Counted from the first letter of the stretch, positions 29,966 through 38,547 are shown. The stretch: DNA of 64,000 nucleotides from an uncultured Solirubrobacterales bacterium (GCA_963825535.1 CAWGTP010000006.1:183507-247506), one strand, 5' to 3'. A program made the numbers and translations. The notes: generated by a model not told the origin, from the sequence alone.

Positions 29966-31732
29966 GTGAAGGTCTTTCGGAGACTGCTGGGCTTCCTGCG
30001 CCCCTACCGCCGCGGCGTGATCGGCTCGCTGCTGCTGGCCGCGGCCGCGATGGGCACCGGCGTGATGATCCCGTTCCTGGTCGGCCGCACGATCGACGAC
30101 ATCCGCGGCGGCGGCGACAGCCTGTGGGTGCTGGCCGGCGTGCTGGTGGCCGCCGGAGTGCTGCGGCTGGCCTTCAGCGTCGTCCGGCGGCTGGTGGCAG
30201 GGCGCGTGTCGCTCGGCGTGGAGTTCGACCTGCGCAACCTGATGTACCGCCACCTGCAGTCGCTCGAGCTGAGCTTCTTCGACGGCCAGCAGACCGGCCA
30301 GCTGATGTCACGCTCGACCGTCGACCTCCAGTCGGTGCGGTTCTTCCTCGGCTACGGGCTGATCTTCATGATGCAGTCGGCCCTGGCCATCCTTATCGCC
30401 GCCGGCGTGATGCTCGCGGTCAACCCGCTGCTGGCCGCGGTCGCACTGGCACCGATGCCGCTAGTCATCTGGGTGGCCGCCCGCTACGGGAAGCTGAACC
30501 GGCCCGCCGCGCAGGAGGTGCAGCAGCGGATCGCGGAGCTGACCGCGGAGGCCGAGGAGAACGTGGGCGGAGTGCGCGTGGTCAAGGCGTTCGCGCAGGA
30601 GCGGCGCCAGGTCAAGCGCTTCGACCGCGCCGTCACGCGCGTGTTCGACCAGTCGATGGTGTCCACGCGGCTGCGCGCGTTCTACAACCCGTTCCTGGGC
30701 TTCCTGCCCCAGCTCGGCCTGGCGGCGATCATCCTGGTCGGGGGGCGGCAGGTGATCAACGGCGCCATCTCGATCGGGGACTTCGTGGCCTTCTATGGCT
30801 ACGTGGTCATGCTCGTCGGCCCGATGCGCATGCTCGGTGTGTCGTTGGGCATGGCCCAGCGTGCCGTGGCATCGGGCAACCGCGTGTTCGAGATCCTGGA
30901 CCGCGCGCCGCGGCTGACCGCGCCCGACGACGCTTCGGCGCTGCCGGCGGGCGGCGGGCACGTGCGCATGAGCGGCGTGTCGTTCGGCTACGAGGGAGGC
31001 GCCGGCGAGGTGCTGCGCGACATCGAGCTGGACGTCCCGGCCGGCCGGACGGTGGCCGTGGTTGGCGCCACCGGGTCCGGCAAGAGCACGCTGGTCATGC
31101 TGATCCCGCGGCTCTACGACGTGGACCTCGGAGCGGTCACGATCGACGGCGTCGACGTCCGGGACGTAGACCTGGAGTCGCTGCGCCACGAGATCGCGCT
31201 CGTTTCCGACGACGCGTTCCTGTTCAGCGCCTCGCTTCGCGACAACATCGCCTACGCGCGGCCCGAGGCCGCCGATGAAGAGGTGGCCGAGGCCGCCGCG
31301 CGCGCTGGGCTTACCGAGGTGGTCGCGGGCCTGCCCGACGGCTACGACACGCTCGTGGGCGAGCGCGGCCTGACCCTCTCCGGCGGCCAGCGCCAGCGCG
31401 TGGCGATCGCGCGAGCGCTGCTGGCGGCGCCGCGGGTGCTGATCCTGGACGACGCCACGTCCAGCGTGGACGCCACGACCGAGAGCGCGATCAAGAAGGC
31501 ACTTGCCGAGGTCATGGAGGGCCGCACCACGTTCGTGATCGCGCACCGGATGTCCACGATCTCGCTGGCCGACGAGGTGATCGTGCTCGAGGACGGCCGG
31601 ATAGCCGCGCAAGGCACGCACGACGAGCTTCTCGAGCGCTCGCCGCTGTACCGCGAGATCGCCGAGCGCGGCCTGCCGGACCCGCGCGTGCTCGCGGCCG
31701 CCAACGAGGGCCGGCAGGTCGCGGGCCTGTGA
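29966..31732 (+). CDS. ABC exporter half-transporter (TMD-NBD), subunit with a non-canonical catalytic residue
   Basis: Six-TM exporter domain. Walker A GATGSGKST, signature LSGGQRQR, Walker B LILDDATSSVD (Asp where the catalytic Glu is expected). Confidence 0.9.
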   Translation: MKVFRRLLGFLRPYRRGVIGSLLLAAAAMGTGVMIPFLVGRTIDDIRGGGDSLWVLAGVLVAAGVLRLAFSVVRRLVAGRVSLGVEFDLRNLMYRHLQSLELSFFDGQQTGQLMSRSTVDLQSVRFFLGYGLIFMMQSALAILIAAGVMLAVNPLLAAVALAPMPLVIWVAARYGKLNRPAAQEVQQRIAELTAEAEENVGGVRVVKAFAQERRQVKRFDRAVTRVFDQSMVSTRLRAFYNPFLGFLPQLGLAAIILVGGRQVINGAISIGDFVAFYGYVVMLVGPMRMLGVSLGMAQRAVASGNRVFEILDRAPRLTAPDDASALPAGGGHVRMSGVSFGYEGGAGEVLRDIELDVPAGRTVAVVGATGSGKSTLVMLIPRLYDVDLGAVTIDGVDVRDVDLESLRHEIALVSDDAFLFSASLRDNIAYARPEAADEEVAEAAARAGLTEVVAGLPDGYDTLVGERGLTLSGGQRQRVAIARALLAAPRVLILDDATSSVDATTESAIKKALAEVMEGRTTFVIAHRMSTISLADEVIVLEDGRIAAQGTHDELLERSPLYREIAERGLPDPRVLAAANEGRQVAGL

Positions 31733-33507
31733 GCGGCCTACGCGCCAACTGGGCGACTGTGCGGGCCGAGCGCGGCCGCGCCCGCCGGCTCGGCAAGCTG
31801 GCCGCGCTGCTGCGCCCCTACCGCGGCCGCGTCGTGCTGATGTTCATCACGCTGGTGATCGCGACCGCGGCTGCGCTGGCGCCCGCCTACCTGGCCGGGC
31901 GCGCCATCGACGCGGGGATCCGCGACAAGGACACCACGGCGCTCACCTGGATCATGGTGGCCTTCGTGGGCGCGGGCCTGGTCAACTTCGCCGCCACCTA
32001 CGCGCAGACGTACCTGACCAGCTGGGTCGGCCAGCGCGCGCTGCAGGACCTGCGCCGCCAGATCTTCCGCCACCTCCAGCGGCTGTCGATCGGCTTCTAC
32101 TCACGCAACAAGGCGGGCGTGCTGATCTCACGTATGACCAACGACGTGCAGGCGCTGGACCAGCTCGTAACCGACGGCATCGTGACGCTGTTCTCGGCCT
32201 CGCTGACGTTGATCGGCACCGCCGCGATCCTGATGGCGATGGACGTCAAGCTGGCGCTGATCACGTTCACGGTGTTCCCGGTGCTGGCGATCGCCAGCGT
32301 CGCCTTTCGGATCGCGTCGGCGGACGCCTACCGGATGACCAGGGAGAAGATCGCCTCGATCACCTCCTATCTCCAGGAGACGCTCTCGGGGGTGAGGATC
32401 GTGCGCGCGTTCGGCCAGGAGCCACGGCACGAGCGCCAGTTCACCGGCCTCAACGACGAGAACCGCGACGCGAACATGAAGACCGTCTACCTGAACGCCG
32501 CCTACTTCCCGTCGGTAGAGCTGCTGTCCGCCGTCGCAACCGCGGTGATCCTGGTCTATGGCGGCAACCAGGTGGTCGACGGCGCCGTGTCGATCGGCGT
32601 GCTCGCCTCGTTCGTGTTCTACCTGGCCACGTTCTTCGACCCGATCCAGCAGCTCTCGCAGCTGTACACGACCTACCAGTCGGGCATGGCTGCGCTGGAC
32701 AAGATCTTCGGGCTGTTGGCCGAACAGCCCGAGATCGAGGACGCACCCGGCGCGACCGAGCTGCCGCCGGTCAAGGGCCAGATCGACTTCGACGGCGTTT
32801 GCTTCTCATACGGCAACGACGAGGTCCTGCACGCGATCGACCTGCATGTGCCGCCGGGCCAGACCGTCGCGCTCGTGGGCGCCACGGGCGCGGGGAAATC
32901 CACGCTGGCCAAGCTGGTGGCGCGCTTCTACGACCCCACATCGGGCCGGATCGCCATCGACGGCCACGACCTGCGCGACGTGACCGAGCACTCGCTGCGC
33001 TCCCAGCTGGGCACGGTGCCCCAGGAGGGCTTCCTGTTCTCCGGCAGCATCCGCGAGAACATCGGCTTCGGCGCCCCCGAGGCGGGTGACGAGGAGGTCG
33101 AGGCCGCGGCTCGGGCCGTGGGCGCCAGCGAGTTCATCGAGCGGCTTCCCGGCGGCTACGACACCGAGGTCGGTGAGCGCGGCGGCCACCTGTCCGCCGG
33201 CCAGCGCCAGCTGGTCGCCTTCGCCCGCGCCGCCGCCGCCGACCCACGCGTGCTGATCCTCGACGAGGCGACCTCGAACGTGGACGTGGCGACCGAGGCG
33301 CGGATCGAGCACGGCCTGCGCCGGCTGCTGGCCGGGCGCACCGCGATCGTGATCGCGCATCGGCTGTCGACGATCCAGGACGCCGGGCGGATCGTGGTGC
33401 TCGAGCACGGCCGGATCGCCGAGCAGGGCACGCACGACGAGCTGCTGGCCGCCGGCGGCGCCTACGCGCGGCTGTACGAGGACTGGGCGCGGCAGGCAGC
33501 CGCGTAG
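31729..33507 (+). CDS. ABC exporter half-transporter (TMD-NBD), canonical catalytic subunit
   Basis: Walker A GATGAGKST, Walker B LILDEATSNVD (canonical Glu), signature LSAGQRQL (deviant). 4-nt overlap with the partner gene. Confidence 0.9.
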   Translation: MSGLRANWATVRAERGRARRLGKLAALLRPYRGRVVLMFITLVIATAAALAPAYLAGRAIDAGIRDKDTTALTWIMVAFVGAGLVNFAATYAQTYLTSWVGQRALQDLRRQIFRHLQRLSIGFYSRNKAGVLISRMTNDVQALDQLVTDGIVTLFSASLTLIGTAAILMAMDVKLALITFTVFPVLAIASVAFRIASADAYRMTREKIASITSYLQETLSGVRIVRAFGQEPRHERQFTGLNDENRDANMKTVYLNAAYFPSVELLSAVATAVILVYGGNQVVDGAVSIGVLASFVFYLATFFDPIQQLSQLYTTYQSGMAALDKIFGLLAEQPEIEDAPGATELPPVKGQIDFDGVCFSYGNDEVLHAIDLHVPPGQTVALVGATGAGKSTLAKLVARFYDPTSGRIAIDGHDLRDVTEHSLRSQLGTVPQEGFLFSGSIRENIGFGAPEAGDEEVEAAARAVGASEFIERLPGGYDTEVGERGGHLSAGQRQLVAFARAAAADPRVLILDEATSNVDVATEARIEHGLRRLLAGRTAIVIAHRLSTIQDAGRIVVLEHGRIAEQGTHDELLAAGGAYARLYEDWARQAAA

Positions 33508-33510
33508 CCC

Positions 33511-34152
33511 CTAGCGCCGGTCCTGGCTCGGCGGAGCCGTCACTGAAACGGCGTAGATGATCTCGAAGGCGGCGTCCACGACCTCGGTCAGCCGCTCGGC
33601 CCGGCCCTCCTCGACCACCTCGAGCATCAGCTCGTTGATGCCGGCCACGATCGCGGTGGCCACCGCCGGGCTGATCGGGCGCACGTCGGGCCGGTCGCGA
33701 GCGGCCTGCTCGGACAACCGTACGAACGTGTCGGCGTGGGCCTTGTAGGCCTGCCGCCGCACCCGCAATGCCTCGGGCCCACCGGCCTGGACCTCCAGCA
33801 CCAGCGTCCGCGTGAGCTGGGGGCTTGACGCCGCGACACGCATGTAGGTCAGGCACGCGGCGCGCGCCTTGGCCTCCCAGGTGTCCTCCTGTGCGATCGC
33901 CTGGTCGATCACCCCCAGCATCTGGTCGGTGATCGACATGGCGAGCGCGGCGAAGCACTCGCGCTTGTCGGTGAAGTACTCGTAGAAGGTCCGCTTGGAC
34001 ACGTGCGCATGGCGAACAATGTCGGCCACCGTGGTAGCGCCGAGCTCCTTCTCGGCGAGCGCGGACGCGAGTCCGTTGATCAGACGCCGGCGATAACGAT
34101 CAGATCCGCCGGAATCCCCTGCGCGCGCCTCGGTCCCAATGATCGCGGACAT
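33511..34152 (-). CDS. TetR family transcriptional regulator
   Basis: N-terminal HTH: TTVADIVRHAHVSKRTFYEYFTDKRECF. 213 aa. Divergent from the lipid-kinase operon. Confidence 0.9.
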   Translation of the reverse strand: MSAIIGTEARAGDSGGSDRYRRRLINGLASALAEKELGATTVADIVRHAHVSKRTFYEYFTDKRECFAALAMSITDQMLGVIDQAIAQEDTWEAKARAACLTYMRVAASSPQLTRTLVLEVQAGGPEALRVRRQAYKAHADTFVRLSEQAARDRPDVRPISPAVATAIVAGINELMLEVVEEGRAERLTEVVDAAFEIIYAVSVTAPPSQDRR

Positions 34153-34262
34153 CGGTTTCCTAACCCTACGCCAGCGTGGCCGAGAGTACGGCTACCACGA
34201 TTGGCGGCCTCCGGAAAGCTGAACTAGATTTGGATAGTCGTTAACGAAAGGCGAGGGTAGGC

Positions 34263-35180
34263 ATGCGACTGGCGCGCCGCTCATCTCACGCGTCGGTGAT
34301 CGTGAACGGACGCGCCAGCGGAAGCGTCGATGCCTCCGACCTGCTCGCCGAGGTGGTCGACCACGTCCGCGCTGCGGGCGCCACGGCCGACGGCCTGGTC
34401 ACCCACGATGAAGACGAGCTCCGGGCGGCGCTCGAGCGGGCCGGCGATCGCCGCGCGGTACTCGTCGGCGGCGACGGCACGCTGCACACCGCGCTCAACC
34501 TGCCGATCGAGTTGCCCGAGCTGGCACTGGTGCCGGCCGGGCGGGCGAACAACGTCGCACGTGCCCTCGGCATCCCCAGCGATGCCGGCGCCGCCGCCCG
34601 GTTGGCCGTCAAGGGTCCGGCAGCCGCCCTCGACACCCTGCTGGTGGAGTCCAGCGGACGCTCGACGTACACACTCGAGGCGCTCAGCGCCGGGCTCCAG
34701 GCCGATGCCCGTGGGCGCTACAACGGCCAGAACTCGGCCGATCTCGCAGCCGGCGTGCGCGCGCTGGCGAATGCCATGCGCTCCTACCATCCCTACCCGG
34801 TCGACCTCGAGATCGACGGGGAACAGGCGTTCGCGGGCAGTGCCGGCCAGGTGTTCCTGGCGAACATGCCCTACTTCGGCTTCGGTTTCAGGGTCGATCC
34901 GTACGCCGACCCCTCGGACGGGCTGCTGGAGGCGATCGTGCTCGAGGCTGCGTCGCGGGCATCGGCGGCGAAGCTGCTGATATCGGTCTACCGGGGCCAC
35001 CACCTCCAGCGTGCCGGCGTGCACGTCAGGCGAGGGCGTCGCGCGCGCCTCTCGGGACCGCTGCCGATGGCTTCGGACGGCGAACCGCTCGGAATCGGGT
35101 CGGCGACCATCACGATCGACCCCGACCGGCTGCGGCTGGTCACCCACGGCCTCCCGATGGAGGCGTCATGGCAAGGGTGA
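34263..35180 (+). CDS. diacylglycerol-kinase-catalytic-domain lipid kinase (DgkB/YegS-like)
   Basis: SVIVNGRASG, VLVGGDGTLHTAL (GGDGT motif), LVPAGRANNVARALG. RBS GAGGG lies upstream of the ATG. Confidence 0.85.
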   Translation: MRLARRSSHASVIVNGRASGSVDASDLLAEVVDHVRAAGATADGLVTHDEDELRAALERAGDRRAVLVGGDGTLHTALNLPIELPELALVPAGRANNVARALGIPSDAGAAARLAVKGPAAALDTLLVESSGRSTYTLEALSAGLQADARGRYNGQNSADLAAGVRALANAMRSYHPYPVDLEIDGEQAFAGSAGQVFLANMPYFGFGFRVDPYADPSDGLLEAIVLEAASRASAAKLLISVYRGHHLQRAGVHVRRGRRARLSGPLPMASDGEPLGIGSATITIDPDRLRLVTHGLPMEASWQG

Positions 35181-37870
35181 GCGGTCCAGCCGGGGGCGCC
35201 GCAGGCTTTCTGGCGGCGTTCGGGATGGCCGCGCTCGGAGTCGGAGCAGCGCGAGCCATCACCACCTCGTATGTACCGGTACTGCTCGAGCGGATCCAGG
35301 ACAACCCGGCGCTGATCGGCGTGGTGATGCTCGTGAACGCCGGCGCGGGGTTCGCCGTGCCGCTCGCGGTCGGTGTGTGGACGGACCGCCACGGCGGCGG
35401 GCGCATGGGCCCGAGGCTGCCGTTCCTGGTCGCGGGCGCCGTTCTGACGAGCGTGGGCCTCACCGCGGTCGCGCTCGGGACCGAGAGCTCCTATCTCTTC
35501 CTCGCCCTGGCGGCGGCGATCGTCTACGTGGGGCTCAACGCCGCCGCCACCGCCCACCGCGCAATCGTGGCGGAGTCGTTCGAGGACGGACGCCGGCCGG
35601 GCGCGACCAGCGCCCAGGAGACGGCGATGCTCGTCGGGGCGCTTGCCGGTGTCGTCGTGGGTGGGTTCCTGATCGACTCAACCCCCTGGCTGGTATTCGC
35701 CGCTACGGCGCTTGCGCTTCCGGCGCTGGCGATAGTGACTGTGCGGGCGACGCTGGGACGGCTCGGGCCCGGGCCGGGCGGACGCCGGACACCTGCCGCG
35801 CCCAACCGTGGCGGGGGACGCGACCTGCTCGGGGCGTTGCAGGTGCGCGGCGCACGCGAGGTCCTGCTGGCGCAGATCATCTGGGTCGGGGCCTACGCGG
35901 CCCTGCCGGCCTTCTTCATCCTGTACGCCGACGACGTGCTCGAACTGGGGGCCGGGCCTGCATCACTGATGCTCGCCGGCTTCGGCCTCTTCACCGGCGG
36001 CGCCATGGTCATCGCGGGCCGCACCGCGCCGGAGCGCGTCTACCCGCTGCTGTGTCTGGGCGCGCTGGCGCTCGGCGCCGGCCTCGCGGTCTCAGCGCTC
36101 GGCGGCAGCGTCGCGGCCGTGAGCATCCCGTTCGCTGTCGCAGCCGTGGGCGCGGGCCTGGTCACGGCGCTCGGATTTCCCTACTTCGCCCGCTTCATCC
36201 CCGACGGGGAGTCGGGCCGCTACACCGGGCTGTTCTTCTCGGTGCGGGCGATTGCCACGGCGGTCGCGCTGCCGCTTGCCGGGCTCGCGATCGAGCTTTC
36301 GGGCAGCTACCGGTCGCTGCTGCTGCTCGGTGGCACGGCGCTGCTGGCGCTGATCCCGCTCGGCATTGCCGAGCGCGGCCGCGCCGCCGCGCCCGATCGC
36401 CGCCGGTCGCCACCCGCCCGTCTTGCCGCGGTAATCCCCTGCCATGAGTCCGCATGCCTCGAGCGCGTTGTGGTGCTGACGCTCGCGCAGGTCGACCGCG
36501 CCGTGGTGGTGGCCGACGGCTGTTCGCCGCTGCTCGGCGACGAGCTGCAGCGGATCGCGCGGCTGCCACGGGCGCAAGTGGTGCGGCTGGAGCGCAACGC
36601 CGGAAAGGGCACCGCCGTGGCCGCCGGGATCGACGCTGCGCTGAACTCGGATCACCGACCCGACGCGGTCGTGGTGGTCGACGCCGACGGCCAGCATCCG
36701 CCCGAGCGGATTCGCGAGCTCGCCGCCGCGGCCGCCGGCGCCGATCTTGTCATCGGCGATCGGCTCGGCGAAGTGGCCGCGATGCCGCGCGTGCGCCGCT
36801 TCACCAACCGTGTCTCGAGCACGCTGCTCAGCGTGGTCACCAGACGGCGGGTGCGTGACTCGCAGTGCGGCATGCGCCTGTACCGCAGCGAGCTGCTGGA
36901 GCGGGTCCCACCCCCGCCCGGGCGCTACGAGGCCGAGACGCTGCACCTGCGCGCGATGCTCCGTGAGGGCGCGCGCGTGGCGTGGGTGCCGATAGCGTCG
37001 ATCTACGGCGACGCCCAGAGCTCCTTCCGCCCGCTGCGGGACACGCTGCGTGTGCTCGCGGCGATCGTGCTGCCCGCCGCGCTCGTGCGCCGGGCGGCGT
37101 CCGCGTGGCGGAGGCGGCGCGGCGAGCGGGACCGCGGCGTGGCCTGGCCGGAACGGGACTTCTGGCGCATCTGGGGCGTGCGGCTGGCCGCGATCGTGAT
37201 CGGCACCTGGGCACTTGCCGCGTTCATCCCGCTGATCGAGGCAGCCGACCACAAGCTGTTCGTGGCGATCAACTCGGTCGGGGCCGGGCCCGACTGGGTC
37301 TACCAGACGCTCGATCCGCACAGCCGCAACTACATCCTGCTCTGCCTGGCCGCGGTGCTCGTGGCGCGGCTGAGGTGCCCGCCTCGGGTGCTCGGCGTGG
37401 CGGCCGCCGTCGTGCTCGCCGCTTTCGTCTCCGATGTACTGGTCCAGGCTGTCTACCTGGTACATGACCGCGCCCGGCCGGAGGAGGTGCTGGGCGGCCA
37501 GGCGCTGCTCACCAACGGGCGGCACTGGTCGCACATCGCCTCCTTCCCCAGCGGGCACCTGACCGTGACCACCGCGATCGCCGTCGCGGCGATGTCCACC
37601 GTCCCGGCGCTGCGAGCGCCGATGTGGACCTATGTGGCGGTCATCGCCGTGACCAGGATCACGTTCGGAGCCCATTTCCCGCTCGATGTGGCCGTCGGGA
37701 TCGTGTTCGGCTACGAGGCCGGGCGCTTCTCGGCTGCCTTCATCCAGGCGACCGGGCTGCTGCGCGGCCCGCTGGCGGACGCCTCGCCGCTGACGCGGCC
37801 ACGCACGCCCGGCTTGAGACCGCGGCCGGCCGGCGGCCCGGCGTGGACCCGCTCGAATCGATCGGGCTAG
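35168..37870 (+). CDS. tri-domain membrane protein: MFS-like transporter + family-2 glycosyltransferase + PAP2 phosphatase
   Basis: Single 900-aa ORF. Residues ~1-400 are multi-TM with the loop WTDRHGGGRMGPRLPF. Residues ~405-640 have VIPCHES, ADGCSP, NAGKGTAVAAG, VVDADGQHPP and DSQCGMRLY (GT2). Residues ~690-880 are TM helices with HDRARPEE, FPSGH and TRITFGAHFPLDV (PAP2 C1-C3). Confidence 0.85.
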   Translation: MARVSGPAGGAAGFLAAFGMAALGVGAARAITTSYVPVLLERIQDNPALIGVVMLVNAGAGFAVPLAVGVWTDRHGGGRMGPRLPFLVAGAVLTSVGLTAVALGTESSYLFLALAAAIVYVGLNAAATAHRAIVAESFEDGRRPGATSAQETAMLVGALAGVVVGGFLIDSTPWLVFAATALALPALAIVTVRATLGRLGPGPGGRRTPAAPNRGGGRDLLGALQVRGAREVLLAQIIWVGAYAALPAFFILYADDVLELGAGPASLMLAGFGLFTGGAMVIAGRTAPERVYPLLCLGALALGAGLAVSALGGSVAAVSIPFAVAAVGAGLVTALGFPYFARFIPDGESGRYTGLFFSVRAIATAVALPLAGLAIELSGSYRSLLLLGGTALLALIPLGIAERGRAAAPDRRRSPPARLAAVIPCHESACLERVVVLTLAQVDRAVVVADGCSPLLGDELQRIARLPRAQVVRLERNAGKGTAVAAGIDAALNSDHRPDAVVVVDADGQHPPERIRELAAAAAGADLVIGDRLGEVAAMPRVRRFTNRVSSTLLSVVTRRRVRDSQCGMRLYRSELLERVPPPPGRYEAETLHLRAMLREGARVAWVPIASIYGDAQSSFRPLRDTLRVLAAIVLPAALVRRAASAWRRRRGERDRGVAWPERDFWRIWGVRLAAIVIGTWALAAFIPLIEAADHKLFVAINSVGAGPDWVYQTLDPHSRNYILLCLAAVLVARLRCPPRVLGVAAAVVLAAFVSDVLVQAVYLVHDRARPEEVLGGQALLTNGRHWSHIASFPSGHLTVTTAIAVAAMSTVPALRAPMWTYVAVIAVTRITFGAHFPLDVAVGIVFGYEAGRFSAAFIQATGLLRGPLADASPLTRPRTPGLRPRPAGGPAWTRSNRSG

Positions 37871-38547
37871 ACGGCCGGCTCGGGCGCGCGGCCGCGCTGG
37901 GGCCGCTGGATGCCGAGCACCCTGACGAGCCCCCACGAGCCCAGCACGAGCAGGCCGCCGGTCAACCAGCCGGCGAGAACGTCGGTCGGGTAGTGCACGC
38001 CGAGGAAGACGCGTGACATGCCGACCGCGAGGACGATCACGCCACCAACGAGCCCGACCGCCACACGGACCCGGTCGCGGCTCGCGGCCCGGATCAGCAG
38101 GAAGGCGAGGGTCGCGTAGACCGCCATGCTCGTGGCCGAGTGACCGCTTGGAAAGCTGAATCCGCCGGCGTGTACGAGCTGGTCATCGGCACCGGGTCGC
38201 GGCCGCTCCACGACCTGCTTGATCACCTGGACTGTCAGCTGTGCGGCCACCACCGACAAGACGACCATCAGCACGCCGTGCCAGTGCCGCAGTAGGGCGA
38301 GCACCGCGGTCGCCGCGGCGGCGACCAGCAGCGCGATCTGGGTGCTGCCGACGGCCGAGACGAACAGCGCGGCGCCGGTTCCGGCCGTCAGGGCGGGCCG
38401 GTCTCGCAGTCCCTCGACGGCGAGGCTGTCCAGCCGCGGCAGGGTGACGGTGTGCGTCACGGCCATGCCGAGCACGGCGACCACCCCGGCCATCAACGCC
38501 AGCCACGGCAGGAACGACTTGTGGATGTAGCGATTCAGTGGAGGCAT
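37867..38547 (-). CDS. PAP2-family membrane phosphatase
   Basis: 226 aa with KQVVERPRP, FPSGHSATS and SRVFLGVHYPTDV. Convergent with the fusion gene; the two stop codons share the tetranucleotide CTAG. Confidence 0.88.
   Translation of the reverse strand: MPPLNRYIHKSFLPWLALMAGVVAVLGMAVTHTVTLPRLDSLAVEGLRDRPALTAGTGAALFVSAVGSTQIALLVAAAATAVLALLRHWHGVLMVVLSVVAAQLTVQVIKQVVERPRPGADDQLVHAGGFSFPSGHSATSMAVYATLAFLLIRAASRDRVRVAVGLVGGVIVLAVGMSRVFLGVHYPTDVLAGWLTGGLLVLGSWGLVRVLGIQRPQRGRAPEPAV

Follow-up and report, generated by a model that had tools for sequence, protein, structure and literature searches.

The window analysed in this study, a stretch of 64,000 nucleotides from an uncultured Solirubrobacterales bacterium, carries on its plus strand two overlapping genes with which this report is concerned. 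The first (34263..35180) encodes a soluble lipid kinase of 305 aa, which belongs to the YegS/BmrU/DgkB family and is recognized by the Pfam models DAGK_cat and YegS_C. Its stop overlaps by 13 nt with the ATG of the second, an open reading frame of 900 codons (35168..37870), whose 900-aa product consists of an MFS transporter domain (aa 1-408, 35168..36391, Pfam MFS_1, PF07690), a GT2 glycosyltransferase domain with two amphipathic helices that is predicted to be cytoplasmic (aa 409-660, 36392..37147, PF00535), and a PAP2 lipid phosphate phosphatase domain (aa 661-900, 37148..37870, PF01569). Convergent to this fusion and overlapping its 3' end by 4 nt, a free-standing second PAP2 phosphatase gene lies on the minus strand (37867..38547, 226 aa, Pfam PAP2, 84 bits), and its product shows the canonical motifs K-x6-RP, PSGH and SR-x5-H-x3-D. 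The divergent gene on the other side encodes a TetR-family regulator (33511..34152, minus strand, Pfam TetR_N); its counterpart was not found at the other loci of the cassette, and it is regarded as local context only.

The original prediction described the open reading frame as a single polypeptide of 900 aa which joins a transporter, a glycosyltransferase and a phosphatase, and this is supported by domain scans, by about 120 fused orthologues and by a confident structure model. All three domains score above their Pfam cut-offs, namely MFS_1 at aa 21-367 (97 bits against 33.4), Glycos_transf_2 at aa 422-579 (50 bits against 23.3) and PAP2 at aa 745-858 (50.7 bits against 27.2), and both junction peptides quoted in the prediction are present, at aa 397-428 and aa 627-688 of the fusion. 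In a protein search, the 120 best relatives came from Thermoleophilia MAGs with 50-90% identity, and all but one of them (119) combine MFS, GT2 and PAP2 in a single chain, whose length is 741-1143 aa. The AlphaFold2 model of the fusion has a pLDDT of 86.6, and the inter-domain linkers, conserved among the relatives, are confidently folded in it; the pTM is 0.60, so the packing between domains is uncertain. One may ask whether three separate genes were instead joined by an assembly or sequencing artefact, as frameshifts do occur in some relatives from long-read MAGs (L034, L037 and L038) and GT2 is a separate gene in other genomes. However, the 119 fused homologues were assembled independently from several sources, other genomes, some of them complete or near-complete, hold the fusion full-length in one frame, and the linkers are conserved and fold confidently, which leaves the chance of an artefact practically negligible. 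The earlier statement that frameshifts are not the source of the fusion is upheld by the same evidence, and the open reading frame is a genuine trifunctional membrane protein.

The MFS domain is predicted, by hydropathy and by the model, to have twelve TM helices with both its N and C ends in the cytoplasm. Motif A between TM2 and TM3 is kept (G69..D73-R74..R83), and the residues invariant in 120 sequences are R29, T33, N57, D73, R74, R83, N124, T128, H130, R131, E151, Q236, W239, Y243 and R360. Among the residues of the membrane core, two arginines but no acidic residue are invariant, as would suit an anionic substrate that bears a phosphate. Pfam returned MFS families only for aa 1-411, and MFS_2 reached 22.7 bits on the fusion, below its cut-off of 27. 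By Foldseek the domain matches MdfA, SPNS2, SLC45A4 and VMAT with TM-scores of 0.73-0.82 on the target; these matches are generic, specific kinship to LtaA, LplT or MFSD2A was not detectable, and none was found to GlpT, UhpT or Pho-type carriers. The proposed resemblance of an MFS loop to glycoside-type carriers proved weak and could not be reproduced: one profile matched the SUC1 sucrose carrier weakly (E=1.6e-3, aa 55-111 only) and SLC45A4 is one among many Foldseek matches, but SUC1 was not recovered with an MFS-only profile, for which the best match was MCT2 at E=6e-3.

As judged from its sequence, the GT2 domain belongs to the class of polyprenyl-phosphate glycosyltransferases (ArnC, DPMS and GtrB). 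A profile search against the PDB gave ArnC at 8e-18, PfDPMS at 1e-16 and GtrB at 4e-12, the only glycosyltransferase matches at E<=1e-10, the next one being chondroitin synthase at 1.9e-4; Foldseek also found ArnC, with E 2.5e-8 over 299 columns. With the solved structures of these PI-GTs, i.e., ArnC (9hwj, 8vxh, 9bhc), Pyrococcus DPMS (5mlz) and Synechocystis GtrB (5ekp), it has in common the GT-A domain, a donor motif of the DADxQHPPE type and amphipathic helices past the domain; the juxtamembrane helices in the model are 541-558, 622-634 and 637-651. The motifs D505-A-D507-G-Q509-H510 and Q566-C-G568-M-R570 are invariant in 120 homologues, and D505/D507 (120/120) align with D94/D96 of GtrB and with the DAD of ArnC and DPMS. 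The acceptor-phosphate arginine R122 of GtrB, universally conserved in lipid-phosphate-acceptor glycosyltransferases according to Ardiccioni et al. (PMC4728340), aligns with invariant R532, and K132 of the basic juxtamembrane helix aligns with R543. For R200 of GtrB the HMM alignment stops short, and the near-invariant R621 is a candidate counterpart that is not aligned. The catalytic D157 of GtrB aligns with a glycine, G568, whereas the invariant D564 lies four residues upstream and is aligned with an Asp conserved in both ArnC and PfDPMS. Unlike the PI-GTs, the domain sits between, or after, MFS and PAP2, has neither a GtrA-like flippase nor a GT-C partner gene beside it, and lacks TM helices of its own, in either fusion order as well as in the separate-gene forms, so it would depend on a membrane partner, with the fusion partners providing the anchor.

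A similar arrangement is known in Ppm1 of Mycobacterium tuberculosis, a polyprenol-monophosphomannose synthase composed of a membrane domain and a soluble GT2, which are two proteins in M. smegmatis. In both cases an actinobacterial PI-GT domain without TM helices is held by a fused polytopic membrane protein, and fused and split forms occur among related organisms, but the partner is an Lnt-like acyltransferase domain in Ppm1 and MFS plus PAP2 here. With such a membrane domain holding a catalytic domain as precedent, and with a GT2 in need of an anchor, MFS could be imagined as a mere membrane anchor or scaffold for GT2 and PAP2 which transports nothing. This is very unlikely, because motif A and about 15 invariant intrahelical polar residues are maintained over 120 sequences, the conservation of MFS equals that of the enzyme domains, and the PAP2 domain by itself could anchor GT2.

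The PAP2 domain has six hydrophobic helices within aa 663-861 by hydropathy and by the model, giving 12 + 6 TM helices predicted for the whole fusion by hydropathy. Its best solved match is LpxE of Aquifex aeolicus (6ebu) at 8e-12, followed by E. coli PgpB at 1e-3, and it resembles LpxE and undecaprenyl-diphosphatase models. In common with LpxE, PgpB and BcrC-type enzymes it is a six-TM PAP2 with motifs of the RP, PSGH and SR-x5-H-x3-D types: R770-P771 and P794-S795-G796-H797 are invariant in 120/120 relatives, and T829, R830, H836 and D840 are kept in 118-120/120, the exceptions being one Ser829 and single alignment gaps. The claim that the catalytic motifs are intact is accurate for the GT2 and PAP2 motifs it listed, but the C1 motif K-x6-R-P of PAP2 has lost its lysine, whose position is Tyr763 in the fusion and Y, Q and K in 90, 19 and 11 of 120 family members, respectively. 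The C1 lysine of PAP2 enzymes helps pyrophosphate binding. The fused domain further differs from the enzymes above by invariant R768 and by an invariant outer-loop motif, G-x-G-P...D-P-H-x-R-N-Y, at aa 705-722. In the predicted membrane topology, GT2 faces the cytoplasm and the active site of PAP2 the exterior; for the active-site loops of PAP2, the hydropathy and the positive-inside pattern predict an outward orientation consistently in both domain orders, with kinase and GT2 on the inner side.

As to the kinase, its best PDB matches are BmrU, DgkB and YegS (E 1e-10 to 1e-8), and the lipid-kinase models of NCBIfam matched below cut-off. At 16/16 loci its orthologue immediately precedes the MFS module, and in two relatives (P0174 and P0082) it is even fused to MFS, while no other conserved neighbour was found across 15 loci. 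As the kinase is the sole conserved neighbour, the four activities are taken as the unit. The original prediction considered the protein alone, and in this respect it needs revision: the fusion is real, but the lipid kinase encoded upstream is part of the functional unit, and relatives differ in the order of their domains. The relatives have MFS-GT2-PAP2, MFS-PAP2-GT2, or MFS-PAP2 with a separate GT2, and three variants are MFS-PAP2-PhoD (P0136, P0210 and P0224) with PhoD predicted outside. The MFS tree is divided into two clades with 100/100 support, in which GT2 is placed differently, implying independent fusions, and MFS-PAP2 is the core common to both. A free-standing PAP2 gene adjoins the cassette in 7/16 loci.

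The distribution of the cassette is patchy, with 12 of 401 Thermoleophilia genomes having it, and none was found in the rest of the phylum sample outside Thermoleophilia. Since BacA, two DedA, GtrA-like and PMT_2 genes exist elsewhere in the same genome, the cassette should be accessory; with the GtrA-like and PMT_2 genes at other places, it does not form a three-component system of the GtrA/GtrB/GtrC type. The genome also carries DedA-PAP2 and PAP2-DAGK fusions. We found no published description of the kinase and MFS-GT2-PAP2 cassette in the literature; it is a putative lipid-carrier cassette known only from some Thermoleophilia and previously unstudied.

Regarding its function, we propose, with a confidence that comes close to but stays below an even chance, that the fusion and the kinase constitute a self-contained cassette of four activities, which glycosylates, flips, dephosphorylates and rephosphorylates a single lipid-phosphate carrier, for which a polyprenyl phosphate is the likeliest candidate. 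That MFS moves a lipid, in which direction it flips, and which lipid and sugar are handled, are points that we infer. In the proposed cycle, the kinase, taken as co-transcribed, would convert a lipid alcohol into lipid-P on the cytoplasmic face, GT2 would, by its predicted activity, use a nucleotide sugar to glycosylate lipid-P, yielding lipid-P-sugar, and MFS would act as flippase and carry the lipid-linked species outward across the membrane. After consumption of the sugar, the outward PAP2 would dephosphorylate the carrier left behind, either lipid-PP or lipid-P, and the lipid alcohol could return inside for re-phosphorylation by the kinase. In favour of this cycle are the fusion in nearly all best relatives, the kinase link at every locus with two cases of direct fusion, the nearest relatives of GT2, all of which glycosylate polyprenyl phosphate, the DxD motif and acceptor-phosphate arginine that GT2 keeps, its lack of own TM helices, the confident model, the independent fusions implied by the MFS tree, the predicted topology, the MFS arginines, the precedent of DedA-PAP2 and DUF368-PAP2 fusions, and the DedA-PAP2 and PAP2-DAGK fusions elsewhere in this genome. 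Against it, MFS is not detectably related in any specific way to MFS proteins known to flip lipids, DAGK_cat-family kinases are known to act on diacylglycerol, ceramide and sphingosine-type lipids rather than on polyprenols, no GT-C transferase or GtrA-like gene accompanying the cassette is conserved across 15 loci, the C1 lysine of PAP2 is usually absent, the pTM is modest, and the cassette is accessory in its genome.

The coupling of MFS to an enzyme that makes or consumes a lipid is familiar from MFS lipid flippases, such as LtaA with the glycolipid synthase YpfP, LplT fused to or paired with the acyltransferase Aas, MFSD2A and SPNS2. The last is a Foldseek match of the fusion MFS (TM 0.73-0.76); specific sequence kinship to these flippases was not found, however, and both the enzymes they are coupled to and the substrate presumed here are different. 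It is conceivable, though doubtful, that MFS represents a new type of translocase, which moves polyprenyl phosphate or polyprenyl-phosphate-sugar and is physically coupled to the enzyme making its substrate, and that kinase, GT2, MFS and PAP2 run an autonomous cycle in which the free alcohol, left after dephosphorylation on the outside, crosses back and is re-activated within the cell by a soluble DgkB-type kinase.

The carrier may also be recycled inward. C55-P translocases were found in 2022, partly via PAP2 fusion architectures, and Sit et al. described DedA-PAP2, DUF368-PAP2 and DUF368-BacA as fusions of a C55-P translocase with a C55-PP phosphatase (PMC9876793). These share with the present protein a polytopic transporter fused to an outward PAP2 (sidedness of PAP2 predicted), but the latter does not belong to their type, as its transporter is neither DedA/VTT nor DUF368, and GT2 and the lipid kinase are added. 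By the same logic, PAP2 would turn polyprenyl-PP into polyprenyl-P, MFS, as a third kind of C55-P translocase beside DedA and DUF368, would flip it inward, GT2 would capture it, and the kinase would top up the supply from polyprenol. The MFS-PAP2 core of both clades, the DedA-PAP2 fusion in the own genome and the likeness of PAP2 to LpxE and undecaprenyl-diphosphatase models agree with such a scheme; nevertheless it is unlikely, since the strict kinase linkage is left unexplained, the cassette is rare, BacA and two DedA genes are present in the host in any case, and the lysine that helps pyrophosphate binding is mostly lost.

Another substrate would be a glycerolipid. In this case the kinase would make phosphatidic acid or another lipid-P, GT2 would add a sugar to give a lipid of the phosphatidyl-sugar type, MFS would flip it to the outer leaflet like LtaA, and PAP2 would turn over lipid phosphate outside. 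The nearest relatives of the kinase are diacylglycerol-type kinases, glycerolipid phosphates are substrates of some PAP2 enzymes, for example PgpB and LpxE, and the absence of a downstream transferase from the cassette is expected for a glycolipid end product. Phosphoglycolipid synthesis is still rather improbable, given that we are not aware of any phosphatidyl-sugar synthase of the GT2 PI-GT class. All GT2 relatives of known function with E<=1e-10 use polyprenyl or dolichyl phosphate, and GtrB reportedly has a high specificity for isoprenoid acceptors (PMC4728340). There is, lastly, only a slim chance that the cassette scavenges phosphate, with the outward PAP2, and PhoD in some relatives, freeing phosphate or organophosphate and MFS importing the soluble anion. 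The outside location predicted for PhoD in the three variants and the two invariant membrane arginines would suit it, but it offers no role for a cytoplasmic polyprenyl-P-type GT2 or for an ATP-consuming kinase, both linked to MFS, and no kinship of MFS to GlpT, UhpT or Pho-type carriers was found.

In the glycosylation of cell surfaces, few steps are as poorly understood as the flipping of polyprenyl-phosphate monosaccharides. To our knowledge, the bacterial candidates are small GtrA and ArnE/F-type proteins only, and in eukaryotes no protein is known to be the flippase of Dol-P-Man or Dol-P-Glc. With a predicted synthase of lipid-linked sugar fused to a transporter and a phosphatase, and with a kinase always paired, the cassette is a compact and testable candidate for a flippase of a new type from Thermoleophilia, an abundant but poorly studied class of soil bacteria, and it suggests what kinase/phosphatase pairs acting on carrier lipids may do in the physiology of the cell. 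If the substrate were a glycerolipid, a new route to phosphoglycolipids would exist in Thermoleophilia; if the autonomous carrier-lipid cycle is true, it would provide a function for the polyprenol pool of Gram-positive bacteria and for the widespread PAP2-DAGK pairing.

The reading frame at 35168-37870 on the forward strand is uninterrupted and encodes 900 amino acids, with a G+C content of about 72-74% in its region, similar to that of the surroundings. Three Pfam domains lie in its product above the curated cut-offs, namely MFS_1 (aa 21-367), Glycos_transf_2 (aa 422-579) and PAP2 (aa 745-858), and both junction peptides quoted in the original prediction are found in it; the description of a transporter, a glycosyltransferase and a phosphatase in one chain is thus correct as it was given. 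Among 5.8 billion proteins searched, 770 relatives were recovered; the best 120 of them, with 50-90% identity and lengths of 741-1143 aa, were examined for domains. All three Pfam domains are found in one chain in 119 of these 120, so the view that orthologues might always be three separate genes does not hold, and the named organisms among them belong to Thermoleophilaceae or Solirubrobacterales. An assembly or sequencing artefact that joined three genes is rejected on the basis of orthologue conservation: other genomes, complete or nearly complete ones included, hold full-length copies in a single frame, and strong conservation extends over the three domains and into parts of the linkers. 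The AlphaFold2 model of the fusion, built with 64 homologues, has a mean pLDDT of 86.6 and a pTM of 0.60, and falls below a pLDDT of 50 only at the termini and at residues 653-655. At three loci from long-read metagenome-assembled genomes (L034 in G032, L037 and L038) the copies are split over several reading frames, which most likely reflects homopolymer sequencing errors and not pseudogenes. Public annotation calls the relatives 'MFS transporter' or 'membrane-associated phospholipid phosphatase/MFS family permease', and our literature searches met neither an account of an MFS-GT2-PAP2 protein nor one of the four-gene logic of the cassette. The fusion is real, conserved and unstudied; every part of it belongs to a known family, and what is new is the combination and the mechanism that it implies.

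The functional unit is larger than this reading frame alone and includes a lipid kinase. A gene for a soluble kinase of the YegS/BmrU/DgkB type (34263-35180) lies directly upstream, its stop overlapping the start of the fusion by 13 nt, and in each of the 16 loci examined the MFS module is directly preceded by an orthologous kinase gene with the same orientation. In one relative (P0174) the kinase is fused to the MFS module, and in another (P0082) kinase, MFS, GT2 and PAP2 form one chain of 1143 aa. When 15 loci were compared all against all, nothing recurred beyond the kinase and the three modules; no recurring GT-C, GtrA or similar partner was found. A second, free PAP2 gene adjoins the cassette in 7 of the 16 loci, among them the window, where it lies at 37867-38547 and has canonical motifs. 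On the other side, the stretch 33511-34262 holds a gene for a TetR-family regulator, divergent from the kinase gene and separated from it by a 110-bp spacer; the regulator is likely the local one of the cassette and is not conserved at other cassette loci. The TetR gene is in turn directly preceded by a heterodimeric ABC exporter pair (29966-33507), which is not conserved with the cassette either, the other loci giving only weak partial ABC matches.

The modules are joined in different ways. Besides the order MFS-GT2-PAP2 of the fusion and its relatives, we found MFS-PAP2-GT2 (G279, G309, P0122), MFS-PAP2 next to a convergent gene for a separate GT2 (G128, G046, G152) and MFS with GT2 in a gene of its own (G404). 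For the MFS domain, a midpoint-rooted tree of 34 rows picked to span all architectures separates two clades with 100/100 support. In one, MFS-PAP2 goes with a GT2 that is separate or attached at the C-terminus; in the other the order is MFS-GT2-PAP2, apart from a few secondary losses or splits. The MFS-PAP2 core thus acquired GT2 at two different positions, which is strong evidence for functional coupling. Three metagenomic relatives (P0136, P0210, P0224) have the order MFS-PAP2-PhoD, the fused GT2 being replaced or absent; about five extra TM helices, assigned to DUF7670 in one of the three, are followed by a PhoD-like phosphodiesterase/phosphatase, which they are predicted to place outside. 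In G128 the open frame of MFS-PAP2 continues into a 1-Cys peroxiredoxin (AhpC-TSA and 1-cysPrx_C; L032:6574-10179, +), and the same kind of protein is encoded by a convergent neighbour in G190 (L031:10687-11541, -); the G128 case may be a true fusion or merely family-level synteny.

For the GT2 domain, sequence and profile searches against solved structures gave at E<=1e-10 ArnC (8e-18), the dolichyl-phosphate mannose synthase of Pyrococcus (1e-16) and GtrB (4e-12), and the sole further glycosyltransferase matched by the fusion profile was chondroitin synthase at E 1.9e-4. The NCBIfam matches are dolichyl-phosphate hexose transferase, AglJ, PpgS and ArnC, each scoring well under its equivalog cut-off, and Foldseek aligned 299 columns to ArnC. 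D505 and D507 stand opposite the DxD of ArnC, the dolichyl-phosphate mannose synthase (DPMS) and GtrB, R532 opposite GtrB R122 and R543 opposite GtrB K132, and all four residues are invariant in 120 sequences; according to the GtrB study, every glycosyltransferase with a lipid-phosphate acceptor has R122 conserved (PMC4728340). A glycine stands opposite GtrB D157, and the invariant D564 opposite a conserved Asp of ArnC and DPMS. Amphipathic helices (541-558, 622-651) lie in the GT2 region, and no TM helix of its own was found for GT2 in the fusion order, the permuted order or the separate-gene form.

Among solved structures, the phosphatase domain matches Aquifex LpxE best (8e-12) and PgpB next. 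The RP and PSGH motifs are invariant and R830..H836..D840 is kept in at least 119 of the 120 sequences, which means that both histidines, nucleophile and acid, are retained; the C1 lysine position is Tyr763 in the fusion and Y, Q or rarely K among the relatives, and R768 and the outer-loop motif G705-x-G-P...D716-P-H-x-R-N-Y722 are invariant. The MFS domain has twelve helices and motif A, with invariant polar residues within the helices (R29, T33, N57, N124, T128, Q236, W239, Y243, R360) and, in 120 sequences, no invariant acidic residue inside the membrane part. No MFS subfamily emerges from the searches: a single-sequence PDB search gave no hit, the full-length profile matched SUC1 marginally and only in the motif A region, the MFS-only profile gave as its marginal match MCT2 and not SUC1, the Pfam MFS_2 score is below its cut-off, and the Foldseek matches are generic. 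A soluble-sugar importer is rejected as the main reading, for neither the lipid kinase nor the lipid phosphatase would then have a role.

From hydropathy averaged over the family and from the placing of Lys and Arg, the MFS part is predicted to have 12 TM helices with both ends inside, GT2 to lie in a cytoplasmic stretch (aa 403-660), and PAP2 to have six TM helices, its C1/C2 loop (764-797) and C3 motif facing outward and its basic C-terminal tail inward. The same sidedness is predicted for the permuted relatives with MFS, six-TM PAP2 and GT2. The kinase and GT2 would act on the inner face and PAP2 on the outer one. Each enzyme of the cassette, that is, the kinase, GT2 and one or two phosphatases, acts on a lipid phosphate, and the MFS module is the only part able to connect the two faces. 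Domain identities, motif conservation, gene linkage and the variation among fusions are shown directly and the sidedness is predicted; from these we infer a closed carrier cycle, with its substrate and direction of transport. Inside, the kinase would convert a lipid alcohol to lipid-phosphate, and GT2, whose class adds a sugar to the phosphate of polyprenyl-phosphate, would make lipid-phosphate-sugar; the MFS module would flip this product across the membrane, the sugar would be consumed outside, one or two PAP2 phosphatases would there dephosphorylate the spent carrier, and the lipid alcohol would return. This scheme is the most economical one and gives a non-redundant role to each of four strictly linked activities. 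The carrier is most likely a polyprenol, given the class of GT2. Known substrates of the kinase family are diacylglycerol-like, and a glycerolipid route that leads to a phosphoglycolipid is accordingly a serious rival.

As far as sampled, the cassette occurs in Thermoleophilia only, as a rare accessory module. Matches were found in 2 of 25 genomes of the own genus (E<=1e-20), the second copy being only 51% identical to the fusion, in 12 of 401 Thermoleophilia genomes from 10 of 120 genera (E<=1e-30), and in 3 of 401 genomes of a phylum sample (E<=1e-25), all three from Thermoleophilia and none from outside it. Among 1.84 billion cluster representatives only 133 matched at E<=1e-30, many of them fragments. 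In a search of genome contigs all full-length relatives came from Solirubrobacteraceae and Thermoleophilaceae, and 76 further loci matched in the GT2 domain only.

BacA is also encoded in the host genome, as are two DedA and two GtrA-like proteins and at least two of the PMT_2 (GT-C) family. One PMT_2 gene adjoins a GtrA-like gene at a distance of about 200 kb from the cassette (contig C6:425027-426929); the pair looks like a conventional glycosylation system dependent on polyprenyl-phosphate-sugar and could be a consumer of a lipid-linked sugar. Contig C3 carries another YegS-type lipid kinase gene directly beside a PLD-type, cardiolipin-synthase-like gene (L117:926-3024, -), with another PAP2 gene about 2.5 kb away. 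One reading frame on contig C2 (about 33070-34906, -; L115:1571-3406, -) joins PAP2 (aa 151-262) to DAGK_cat (aa 284-403) and is a second coupling of an outward lipid phosphatase with a cytoplasmic lipid kinase in this genome, and on contig C3 (L116:1502-3079, +) DedA/VTT (aa 128-253) is fused to PAP2 (aa 401-512), an arrangement that contributed to the recognition of DedA proteins as C55-P translocases. In another rival reading the carrier is polyprenyl and the MFS module works in reverse, flipping polyprenyl-phosphate inward after the PAP2 step as DedA and DUF368 do, whose fusions to PAP2 were used in their identification (PMC9876793). The closed carrier cycle accounts for the kinase, which simple recycling of polyprenyl-pyrophosphate leaves unexplained.

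Among known systems, GtrB, ArnC and DPMS are synthases as the fused GT2 would be, but the latter lacks TM helices of its own, and the cassette would add a presumed coupling to a flippase. Three-component systems use a GtrA-type flippase and a GT-C partner, and the cassette is without both. In mycobacterial Ppm1, a soluble domain of the polyisoprenyl-phosphate glycosyltransferase class is anchored by fusion to a polytopic membrane protein, and the present fusion is alike in this anchoring; it is also like the DedA-PAP2 fusions in joining a transporter to a PAP2 domain predicted to face outward. The fusion and its cassette are thus a concrete candidate for a new flippase of lipid-linked sugar or polyprenyl-phosphate, and the cassette may represent a carrier cycle driven by a kinase and a phosphatase.
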